A DNA stretch of 64,000 bases, from assembly GCA_041743795.1 (NCBI GenBank), contig JBGTMF010000623.1, forward strand, positions 11,851 through 75,850. The letters are read 5' to 3'. Origin of the DNA: Thermodesulfobacteriota bacterium. Its GTDB lineage: Bacteria > Desulfobacterota > Binatia > HRBIN30 > CADEER01. The position numbers and the translations under genes were made by a program. Each line of letters opens with the position of its first letter. The first letter of the stretch is position 1. The notes under the pieces were generated by a model. The model was not told the origin of the DNA. It did no database searches and saw only the letters and a list, made by a program, of their open reading frames with translations. Positions 8,865 through 10,967 of the stretch are shown piece by piece.

Positions 8865-10967
8865 CTACTGAACCGCCGTCGATCCGGGATCGGTGTCACC
8901 GAGACCGTACTTCTGCAGGCGGTGCCTGAGGGATCGATAGTTGATGCCGAGGAGTTCGGCTGCCTTTTTCTTGACGCCGCCCGCCTCGCCGAGGGCTCGC
9001 AGGAGAAAGCTCTTCTCGTATTCCGCCAGGTCGCGTTCCAGGTCGATGTCTTCCCATATGGCTGGCGCGCCGGCGGCGGCTCCGCTCGTGGTGGATGCTT
9101 GCGACGACGGACGGCGGGCTCGCGCCAGGCCGGCGCTGTTGTAGTCCGCATCGGCCAGGAAGCCCGGTAGGTGCTCGACGTCGGCCGTCTCCCCCTCGCA
9201 CATGGCGACGGCGTGCTCGACGATGTTCTCCAGTTCGCGAACGTTTCCCGGGTAGTCGTAGCCGAGGAGCAGGCGAGCCGCCGCATCGGTGAGCCGCAGG
9301 GGAGGCCGGCCGTGCACCGTTGAGAACTGCTCGAGGAAGTGTCGCACCAGAAGCGGAATGTCCTCGCCGCGGTCGCGCAGTGGCGGCACGACGATTTCGA
9401 TGACGTTCAGCCGGTAAAACAAGTCTTCGCGAAACTTTCCCTCTTCGATCTGAGTCGGTAGATCGCGGTTGGTCGCGGCGATGATGCGGACGTTGACGGC
9501 GATGCTGGTCTCTCCACCGACCGGGCGAAAGGTACGCTCTTGCAGGACGCGCAGCAGTTTGACCTGGAGATGAATGGGCAGCTCGCCGATCTCGTCGAGA
9601 AAAATGGTACCGCCATCCGCCATTCGGAAGGAGCCGATGCGGTCCGAACTGGCGCCGGTGAAGGCCCCTTTGACGTGTCCGAAAAGCTCGCTCTCGATGA
9701 GGTTCTCGGGAATCGCCCCACAGTTGATGGCGACGAAGTGCTTGTCGCGTCGCGGCCCCTGGGCGTGGATGGCTCGCGCCACGACTTCCTTGCCGGTTCC
9801 GCTCTCACCGGTGATGAGAATGGTGGCGTCGGACCCCGCGACCCTGGTGATCAGCTTGCGCAGTTCGAGAACGCCCTCGCTCTTGCCGTAGAGGCCGTCG
9901 GCCGGCTCGCCCGACTCTCCCAGGCGGTCTTCGGAAAACTCGCGCAGCGCGGCCGACGAGGTCATCGCCGTCGGTTCTTCGATCTGGCGTAGCTCTGTGA
10001 TGTCCTGAAAGACGTACAATGCCCCGATGGTGTGGCCGAAGGTGTCGCGCAACGCGGCGGTCGAGCAGCGCAGCTCCATGGCTGTCCGATCGTCGCGCGC
10101 GTGGGCGAACTCGATCGGCTCGATTGCTTCCGGCGACTGCAGAAAACGGAGTCGGGCGCTGGGCGTCAGCTTCAGCGGAGGAAACAGATCGCCCAGATCC
10201 GTGCCGCGCAGCGATTCGTTGGATTGGCCCTCGAAGATTCCCGTTCCGGCGCTGTCGACGGTGAGGATGCGTCCCTCGCTGTCGGTCGTCACCAGCGAAC
10301 TGCCGATCGCCTGGGCGAGTGTATCCTTGAGGATGGCCACCCGGTCGCGCTCGGCGCGCTCCTGCGCGAGCAAATGCTCGGCCTCGAAGATCCTCTTGGT
10401 GAGAAATCCGGACAGCAACGCCGTCAGGAAGAACGTCAGGTTGGTCGTGAAGATTCGCGACAGCAGCTCGGCGTCGAGCTGGACGGGCGGAAGATCGTTG
10501 GGCCGCGCGACCTCGATCACTCCGGCCGCGAGTGCGAGCAGGAGGACGTCGTAGAGAACGGCGGCGCCGATTGCCGTCAGCAGTGCGCCGTTGGCAAACA
10601 AGAGTACCGCGCCGTTGATGACCGCAAGGCTGTAGAGGAATGCGAACGGACTATCGACGCCGCTCGTCAGGTAGATCGCTCCGGTGATGAGCAGGAGATC
10701 GATGGCCAGCTGGACGTAGGTGAAACTCGTCAGATCGGCGAGGCGCTCGACCAGCAGCGCCGAGACCAGGGTGACGGCGTAGGTCAGGCCGACGATCAGC
10801 AACAGCGAGTTGATCGAGACCAGGTAGCCCGGCGCGCCGCGGCCGAGGTAGCCGAAGGCGACGACGAAGAAGAAGCACGAGATGACGGCGACCCGGCCGA
10901 GCAGAAACAACTTGAGTCGGCCGATCAGCTCCTGTCGGGCCTCCCTCTCGGCCCAGGGATTCCACAT
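8865..10967 (-). CDS. Membrane-anchored sigma54-dependent activator (TM sensor + PAS + AAA+ + Fis HTH, no receiver domain)
   Basis: N-terminal ~200 aa hold about six hydrophobic helices. A PAS-like segment follows (...ALYVFQDITELRQIE). The sigma54 AAA+ core carries GESGTGKE Walker A and the GAFTGA loop (HVKGAFTGASS). The C-terminal Fis-type HTH is AAELLGINYRSLRHRLQKYGL. No REC-domain motifs are visible. Confidence 0.85.
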   Translation of the reverse strand: MWNPWAEREARQELIGRLKLFLLGRVAVISCFFFVVAFGYLGRGAPGYLVSINSLLLIVGLTYAVTLVSALLVERLADLTSFTYVQLAIDLLLITGAIYLTSGVDSPFAFLYSLAVINGAVLLFANGALLTAIGAAVLYDVLLLALAAGVIEVARPNDLPPVQLDAELLSRIFTTNLTFFLTALLSGFLTKRIFEAEHLLAQERAERDRVAILKDTLAQAIGSSLVTTDSEGRILTVDSAGTGIFEGQSNESLRGTDLGDLFPPLKLTPSARLRFLQSPEAIEPIEFAHARDDRTAMELRCSTAALRDTFGHTIGALYVFQDITELRQIEEPTAMTSSAALREFSEDRLGESGEPADGLYGKSEGVLELRKLITRVAGSDATILITGESGTGKEVVARAIHAQGPRRDKHFVAINCGAIPENLIESELFGHVKGAFTGASSDRIGSFRMADGGTIFLDEIGELPIHLQVKLLRVLQERTFRPVGGETSIAVNVRIIAATNRDLPTQIEEGKFREDLFYRLNVIEIVVPPLRDRGEDIPLLVRHFLEQFSTVHGRPPLRLTDAAARLLLGYDYPGNVRELENIVEHAVAMCEGETADVEHLPGFLADADYNSAGLARARRPSSQASTTSGAAAGAPAIWEDIDLERDLAEYEKSFLLRALGEAGGVKKKAAELLGINYRSLRHRLQKYGLGDTDPGSTAVQ

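Follow-up and report, generated by a model that had tools for sequence, protein, structure and literature searches.

What kind of regulator can stand, as a single gene, where a pair is expected? The question is raised by a minus-strand gene in the 64,000-nt stretch of Thermodesulfobacteriota DNA analyzed here (hereafter, the window), in which one intact open reading frame (ORF), open across 700 codons, lies between pilC and pilA, a position that in Myxococcus and Geobacter is held by pilS and pilR. A preliminary description of the locus, which had already recognized a single 700-aa ORF between these two neighbors, attributed the presence of pilS-pilR in the pilC-pilA interval to Pseudomonas as well as to Myxococcus; the attribution holds for Myxococcus but not for P. 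aeruginosa. The homology of its two halves identifies the product of the gene as a fusion in which the transmembrane (TM) and PAS domains of PilS are joined to the AAA+ and helix-turn-helix (HTH) domains of PilR, the dimerization/histidine-phosphotransfer (DHp) and catalytic ATP-binding (CA) domains of the kinase, and the receiver (REC) and REC-AAA+ linker of the response regulator, having been deleted.

The two parental contributions were delimited with BLASTP. Residues 13-331 align with residues 4-316 of a PilS kinase (P0005) at 32% identity (E = 2e-29), and this alignment terminates at the motif QD(I/L)TE(L/I)R..EE, just ahead of the HisKA domain and H-box of the kinase, whose HisKA match begins at residue 327 and which also possesses a HATPase_c domain. 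From residue 359 to residue 691, the protein aligns with residues 145-457 of a canonical REC-AAA+-HTH protein (P0276; 54% identity, E = 2e-116), beginning right past the receiver and linker of the latter. The 27 residues between these alignments match neither parent and stand in place of the DHp and CA domains of PilS and of the receiver and linker of PilR.

Searches against Pfam place 6TM_PilS (PF25323) at residues 18-199 (41.7 bits, against a cutoff of 27), PAS_4 at 224-328, Sigma54_activat (PF00158) at 360-525 (E = 6e-73), AAA_lid_14 at 531-607 and HTH_8 at 647-687, with the motifs GESGTGKE at residues 387-394 and GAFTGA at 434-439, much as the preliminary description had read them from the translation (PAS, a sigma54 module and a Fis-type HTH). 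At E ≤ 0.01, there is no match to Response_reg, HisKA or HATPase_c in the 700-aa protein, and NCBIfam returned only partial matches, none at model cutoff, to the AAA+/HTH region of many sigma54 activators. In an AlphaFold2 model (mean predicted local distance difference test, or pLDDT, of 73.5), the six membrane helices fall within residues 4-42, 46-73, 79-101, 107-148 (two membrane spans) and 166-221 (TM6, which extends into a long cytoplasmic helix), and are followed by a PAS fold (223-322), a helix (324-345), the AAA+ domain, a disordered segment (609-641) and the HTH; the periplasmic loops, by Pfam and the model, are very short. The helix at 324-345 leads into a linker that is modeled with low confidence (pLDDT below 50 at residues 332-338 and 348-352), acidic and poorly conserved in sequence. 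Among the Foldseek matches listed, sigma54-activator structures (LuxO, FleQ, NtrC1 and ZraR) aligned on the AAA+ core at 45-53% identity, and no relative of known structure was found for the N-terminal half. The model contains no receiver fold, and a receiver of ~120 aa cannot fit in the protein because the gap between the PAS and AAA+ domains amounts to ~30 residues. The preliminary description had claimed that receiver and kinase domains were absent and had raised the prospect of a degenerate receiver between the TM and PAS regions; neither Pfam nor the predicted fold reveals one there.

That description had also counted about six N-terminal TM helices, similar in number to those of PilS. 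The likeness proves to be one of homology, over the TM and PAS regions together, and it includes the polar residues that lie within the membrane in PilS: R25 is present in 100% of fusions and 100% of PilS kinases, Q86 in 93% and 100%, and D90 in 100% and 97%, respectively. Further residues common to the fusions and the kinases, as judged by column conservation, are T101-G-G103, S106, Y112 and Y139. In the other half of the protein, the catalytic residues of the AAA+ domain and those that contact sigma54 are invariant in 15 family members sharing ~45% overall identity, and GAFTGA is found in 10 of 11 intact ORFs from metagenomes, with a variant in the remaining one (L010).

An exhaustive HMMER search with residues 1-345 returned 3704 matches at E ≤ 0.001, and we classified the C-termini of 165 proteins, mostly the best matches of that search: 126 are PilS-type histidine kinases of ~550-580 aa, and 13 have a sigma54 AAA+ module instead. 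Every full-length representative of the latter group (8/8) shares the architecture of the window protein. When the C-terminal half was used as query, receiver-less fusions ranked first, followed by receiver-containing proteins of ~466 aa with 52-55% identity, and these nearest non-fused relatives carry the Joint Genome Institute (JGI) name PilR. The named members of the fusion family derive from Candidatus Binatia metagenome-assembled genomes (MAGs), from MAGs labeled 'Deltaproteobacteria bacterium', and from one Candidatus Acidoferrales MAG, and are currently annotated either generically, as 'sigma-54 interaction domain-containing protein', or wrongly, as response regulator PilR. A scan of genome contigs with a single N-terminal sequence added one weak match (L005, from a Desulfobacteraceae MAG; 38% identity over 76 aa).

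The genomic setting of the fusion was compared across 24 related loci, six of them fetched through individual homologues and 18, all from metagenomes, through a four-sequence alignment of the N-terminal region. The fusion gene lies directly past pilC in all six homologue-derived loci and in all of the 18 metagenome loci whose sequence reaches upstream; and, where there is sufficient downstream sequence, it is followed by one or two copies of pilA, an unknown protein and ABC transporter genes, the exception being L002/L003. Of the metagenome loci with a complete gene, 11 of 12 contain an intact ORF of 695-732 aa. Two tandem copies of pilA occur downstream of the fusion in L009, L012, L014, L016 and L026; over a 26-residue N-terminal stretch (KGFTLIELLVVVAIIGILAAIAIPQF) the copies do not differ, and in L009 and L026 a separate sigma54-type promoter serves the second copy.

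The promoters of the locus point to the genes that the fusion protein would control. Between its stop codon and pilA, ~120 bp downstream of the stop, is the sigma54 promoter TGGCACGGGGGTTGC, and equivalents stand before pilA, or before the next gene, in 12 scanned relatives (L001, L002/L003, L004, L007, L008 and L013, and further L014, L016-L019 and L026), the consensus of those before pilA being TGG(C/T)A(C/T)-N5-TTGC. Because a strong intrinsic terminator follows 20 nt past its stop codon, pilA would form a monocistronic sigma54 unit. The sigma54-type promoter upstream of pilC recurs as TGGCAC-N5-(A/G)TGC in the window and in L001, L002, L012, L014, L018, L019, L021 and L023, and the pilT-pilC spacer also contains a sigma70-like promoter, with a similar sequence in L001. 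This two-promoter layout has a precedent, since sigma54 of Xanthomonas binds the pilA, pilC and pilR promoters (PMC7170775). A third perfect match to TGGCAC-N5-TTGC in the window (TGGCACCCTGGTTGC, 4475-4489, minus strand) falls inside a glycosyltransferase ORF (3564..5321) and may be either a chance match or an internal sigma54 promoter for downstream genes.

From these features we propose, with a probability of roughly 60%, that the gene encodes a one-component sigma54 enhancer-binding protein that is integral to the inner membrane and gated by its PilS-type TM/PAS module, probably by pilin. The preliminary description had likewise offered gating by inner-membrane pilin, and action while membrane bound, as suppositions. 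The protein possesses what characterizes bacterial enhancer-binding proteins at the sequence level (Sigma54_activat, Walker A and B, GAFTGA, a C-terminal HTH and a -24/-12 promoter nearby), and ATP-dependent activation of sigma54-RNA polymerase is predicted. Its most likely target is the sigma54 promoter of pilA; the promoter of its own pilC-fusion operon is probably another, which suggests positive autoregulation above the level supported by the basal sigma70 promoter. Pilin is proposed as the gating signal because the fusion keeps the signature residues of the PilS TM domain and the pilin keeps its N-terminal helix; and PilS is reported to interact directly with PilA via its six TM segments (PMC6058289). 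The TM domain would gauge the inner-membrane pool of unassembled pilin, and the state of pilin occupancy would be relayed through the signaling helix TM6, the dimer of PAS domains and the helix that follows them (residues 324-345), which would either hold the AAA+ domains as an inactive dimer or free them to form the ring that remodels sigma54-RNA polymerase. Such control of oligomerization is modeled on NtrC1 and DctD. Phosphotransfer would be bypassed. We also consider it probable that the protein acts while tethered, because co-translational insertion beside the target gene would keep the promoter at the membrane, as has been proposed for regulators of the ToxR/CadC type (PMC10269533). A bolder form of the proposal, for which we would give somewhat less than even odds, is that this is the first AAA+ activator to assemble, and to remodel sigma54-RNA polymerase, while residing in the inner membrane, its ring gated directly by unassembled pilin in the TM domain.

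Several observations weigh against this proposal. The candidate enhancer, or upstream activating sequence (UAS), falls short statistically: when k-mers were searched without bias for a common motif, TGACA(A) emerged in 5/6 loci and CGAGCC in 5/6, which is too weak for a binding site. The candidate motif resembles the P. aeruginosa PilR site (…TGTC). The low confidence and poor conservation of the PAS-AAA+ linker fit a flexible tether better than a rigid signaling connection. No rpoN gene was found within the 64-kb window, and all sources of the family are uncultured MAGs or metagenomes. In L002 and L003 (GCA_026004195.1, Binatia MAG KatS3mg076), pilB, pilC, the fusion gene and a consensus sigma54 promoter (TGGCACATGCCTTGC; L002 9950-10060) are kept, but neither a pilin gene nor pilT is present in the slot, and the promoter now faces an unknown 311-aa gene and an ABC transporter; since the regulator and its promoter persist there without an adjacent pilA, pilin need not be the sole signal or target. 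Finally, in the RedR2/BtdS system, the one pertinent precedent found, membrane localization switches an enhancer-binding protein off (PMC10084136).

Some of the same observations could be accommodated if the protein were a membrane-sequestered pro-activator, from which a protease cut in the junction linker or in the membrane frees a soluble PAS-AAA+-HTH or AAA+-HTH fragment that activates pilA. The acidic, poorly conserved and low-confidence linker is compatible with such processing; moreover, if PilR is of the NtrC1/DctD type, removal of its N-terminal module would give a constitutively active fragment, and the inactivation of RedR2 by membrane sequestration (PMC10084136) offers a parallel. 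Nevertheless, neither a conserved cleavage motif nor an associated protease gene was seen in 25 loci; the conservation of the PAS domain and of the PilS-specific intramembrane residues goes beyond the needs of a simple anchor; and with the target promoter located so close to the gene, release would be unnecessary for access. We therefore regard proteolytic release as unlikely.

It is likewise improbable, in our estimation, that the TM/PAS module senses a cue other than pilin (e.g., the state of the membrane, another component of the pilus or a PAS ligand), or that it only localizes a largely constitutive activator, for example to the cell pole, close to the pilus machinery. The retention of the regulator and its promoter in L002, where pilA and pilT are absent from the slot, speaks for a different cue, as does the report that a change in inner-membrane PilA represents just one among the signals for PilR in P. 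aeruginosa (PMC6058289); a localizing role has a forerunner in work on the PilS TM domain in polar targeting (Ethier & Boyd 2000, as cited in PMC6058289). Against these readings stand the retained polar intramembrane signature of PilS and a pilin N-terminal helix that is identical across loci whose sensors share only ~50% identity.

The remaining alternatives carry very little weight. That the protein is a cryptic response regulator in a phosphorelay with an unlinked kinase has nothing in its favor beyond descent from PilR, and we reject it since there is neither a Pfam match to a receiver nor a receiver fold, and just 27 residues separate the PilS-like and PilR-like segments, leaving no space for one. 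Equally implausible is that the ORF is an assembly chimera, a frameshift artefact or a decaying pseudogene left by a deletion, a suspicion fostered by family members that look split or shortened in long-read assemblies: the identical 700-aa product, followed by a 132-aa pilin, is encoded in an independent assembly from short reads (Logan SRR28170463), so that the ORF of the window is neither a frameshift artefact nor a chimera; the 11 intact metagenome ORFs, from short reads, keep their catalytic motifs; functional residues are invariant across the divergent family; and the 'short' database entries (587-623 aa) owe their length to frameshifts in error-prone long-read assemblies, in which neighboring genes are broken too (e.g., PPDK in L007). 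The possibility, raised at the outset, that a frameshift had split separate kinase-like and regulator genes is thereby rejected as well, and within the 64-kb window no other PilS, PilR or sigma54 activator, canonical or otherwise, is encoded.

How did two genes become one? In neighbor-joining trees (midpoint-rooted, and without support values), built for both the N-terminal half and the AAA+ core, the main group of fusions each time forms one clade, apart from the canonical kinases and from the receiver-containing regulators. Most likely, the main clade arose from adjacent pilS and pilR genes by an in-frame deletion that removed the DHp and CA domains of PilS and the receiver of PilR, and we infer the direction of change, from two components to one, from the narrow distribution of the fusions. 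The AAA+ core of P0253 (L027, JGI 3300001372), an N-terminally truncated but canonical REC-AAA+-HTH PilR whose gene adjoins a pilin gene, falls inside the fused clade; this protein could represent an unfused sister lineage or simply noise in the tree, and its position fits an origin in situ from pilS-pilR-pilA. A further fusion, represented by P0045 and P0170, has an N-terminal half that is closest to PilS kinases (38-46% identity), a C-terminal half closest to receiver-containing PilR proteins (53-57%) and a junction of only ~12 residues, which indicates a second, independent PilS::PilR fusion. The P0045 locus (L004 8001-9914; JGI 3300032020) belongs to an AT-rich genome and has the pilC-X-pilA slot and a promoter of its own, TGGCACGTCCCTTGC. 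That the same design arose independently in one and the same slot speaks for its being workable.

The features of the locus are collected in Table 1.

Table 1. Features of the fusion gene and of the surrounding pil cluster (positions are those of the window; residues are those of the fusion protein).
Feature	Residues	Window position	Strand	Evidence or remark
Fusion gene, PilS-type six-helix TM domain and PAS joined to PilR-type sigma54 AAA+ and HTH_8	1-700	8865..10967	minus	700 aa
Six-helix PilS-like TM domain	1-200	10368..10967	minus	Pfam, AlphaFold2 helices, column conservation
PAS domain, homologous to PilS PAS	223-322	10002..10301	minus	Pfam, AlphaFold2, BLASTP
Junction linker	332-358	9894..9974	minus	BLASTP breakpoints, pLDDT
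Sigma54-interaction AAA+ core and lid	359-608	9144..9893	minus	Walker A GESGTGKE, GAFTGA loop, Walker B DEIGEL
Fis-type HTH_8 DNA-binding domain	643-687	8907..9041	minus	Pfam, AlphaFold2; preceded by disordered residues 609-641
Sigma54 promoter (-24/-12), TGGCACGGGGGTTGC		8744..8730	minus	perfect match; ~97 nt upstream of pilA start codon
Candidate enhancer (UAS) region		8755..8825	minus	TTGTCA 8825..8820, TGACG 8804..8800
Inverted repeat TGTTGGCGGCC/GGCTGCCAACA in candidate UAS		8787..8755	minus	candidate only
Second sigma54-type promoter, TGGCACAGCACATGC		12267..12253	minus	upstream of pilC-fusion
Sigma70-like promoter, TTGACT-18-TATAGT		12419..12390	minus	pilT-pilC spacer
Intrinsic terminator		8215..8188	minus	12-bp stem and T-run, past pilA stop
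pilB		13570..15288	minus	family match
pilT		12416..13816	minus	as listed (466 aa); real start probably near 13510
pilC (platform protein)		10971..12236	minus	upstream of fusion; Pfam/NCBIfam
pilA, type IVa prepilin (132 aa)		8235..8633	minus	MKAITIRMKDKG followed by FTLIELLVVVAIIGILAAIAIP, E5 and P22; ribosome-binding site AGGAGG 8643..8638
Unknown 340-aa protein, position of PilG		7129..8151	minus	without Pfam or NCBIfam match
ABC ATPase		6203..7120	minus	Pfam
ABC-2 permease		5318..6184	minus	Pfam

All genes of the cluster are on the minus strand, in the order PPDK, aroE, pilB, pilT, pilC, fusion, pilA, the 340-aa unknown, ABC ATPase, ABC-2 permease and a PMT/TMTC-type glycosyltransferase, beyond which is a gene for a prepilin peptidase. 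The pil genes of Myxococcus are ordered in this way, except that a single gene here stands in for pilS-pilR. Because the stop codon of pilC lies 3 nt from the start of the fusion gene, the two are probably co-transcribed. The true start of pilA is the ATG at 8633, which yields the N-terminal helix conserved with its E5 and P22. The listed ORFs of pilT and aroE (15323-16507, minus strand, 394 aa) are overlong at their 5' ends by ~100-120 codons; the family match begins at residue 103 in pilT and at residue 124 in aroE, and pilT as listed extends back into the end of pilB, placing the true starts further downstream. Past pilA, the genes at 5318..8151 follow the Myxococcus order pilG-pilH-pilI, as they do in related loci; the 340-aa protein is conserved at 47-62% identity in nearly all of these, always with the ABC ATPase next. 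The PMT/TMTC-like membrane glycosyltransferase past the ABC genes (3564-5321, minus strand), whose counterparts in related loci bear TPR repeats, may glycosylate pilin or another envelope protein, and the prepilin peptidase (A24; 1720-2508, minus strand) closes the cluster. Elsewhere, the window contains a BatA/VWA/DUF58 cluster of the aerotolerance-operon type (54328-59939, minus strand), a 1194-aa S8 subtilase (37826..41410) and a 932-aa NosD-like beta-helix protein (45977..48775); its ORFs of 400-700 aa without a family match include 31182..32402 and 60907..63033.

The fusion amounts to a natural experiment in the rewiring of a pathway, in that a two-component system was cut to one protein with the loss of exactly its phosphotransfer modules, and one genomic site appears to have seen this reduction at least twice. 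The result, conserved beside the pilin gene across the uncultured lineage Binatia, is an undescribed wiring of a well-known regulatory pair: the literature searched, which covers few subscription journals, yielded no description of either a PilS-PilR fusion or an integral-membrane sigma54 activator. Should its predicted activity be borne out, it would follow that a sigma54 activator is able to function inside the membrane, that the PilS TM/PAS module can pass its signal to a non-kinase output, and that transcription could serve as a direct read-out of how PilS-type domains sense pilin. The annotation of these genes, labeled generically or wrongly as response regulator PilR, is corrected here. 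As in any one-component system, a sensor and a DNA-binding output are present in one polypeptide without a transmitter or a receiver. Of what defines PilS, there is the six-helix TM domain followed by PAS, but not the HisKA domain with its phospho-accepting histidine or HATPase_c; of what defines PilR, there is the AAA+/HTH output encoded beside a sigma54-dependent pilin gene, but not the receiver with its phospho-accepting aspartate. Since it is by definition neither a histidine kinase nor a response regulator, the protein should not be filed as PilS or PilR, despite its descent from both.

Among regulators that are anchored in membranes, ToxR, CadC and TcpP (PMC10269533) resemble the fusion in that an inner-membrane anchor holds a DNA-binding regulator that acts, or is believed to act, from the membrane on nearby genes. 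These proteins, however, have an N-terminal winged helix of the OmpR type, a single TM helix and a periplasmic sensor, and operate with sigma70, whereas the fusion has six N-terminal TM helices and a C-terminal Fis-type HTH, and would require an AAA+ ring and sigma54; in the accessible text of that survey of transmembrane transcription regulators (PMC10269533), the terms 'sigma', 'NtrC', 'enhancer' and 'HTH_8' do not occur. RedR2/BtdS (PMC10084136) offers a sigma54 activator whose activity depends on the membrane, but there the association is in trans, through a separate protein with four TM segments, and is inactivating.

Among sigma54 activators, the closest parallels in domain logic are one-component proteins such as NifA, DmpR/XylR, NorR and the PAS-type enhancer-binding proteins of Desulfovibrio (PMC4641369), in which a sensor is fused to AAA+ and HTH domains without a receiver and presumably controls the assembly or activity of the AAA+ domain. 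These are soluble, whereas the fusion has taken over the six-helix membrane domain of a histidine kinase. As in NtrC1 and DctD, a dimeric N-terminal module and the helix before the AAA+ domain could keep the ATPase as an inactive dimer, although in the fusion this module is TM and PAS rather than a receiver, and the connection between helix and AAA+ domain is poorly conserved. With the PilS-PilR systems of P. aeruginosa, Myxococcus xanthus and Geobacter, the fusion shares both the six-helix TM and PAS domains of the sensor and the AAA+/HTH output of the regulator. Because it is without HisKA, HATPase_c, REC and the REC-AAA+ linker, there can be neither phosphotransfer nor a kinase/phosphatase switch; and unlike that pair, it is a single polypeptide in which the activator is itself integral to the membrane.

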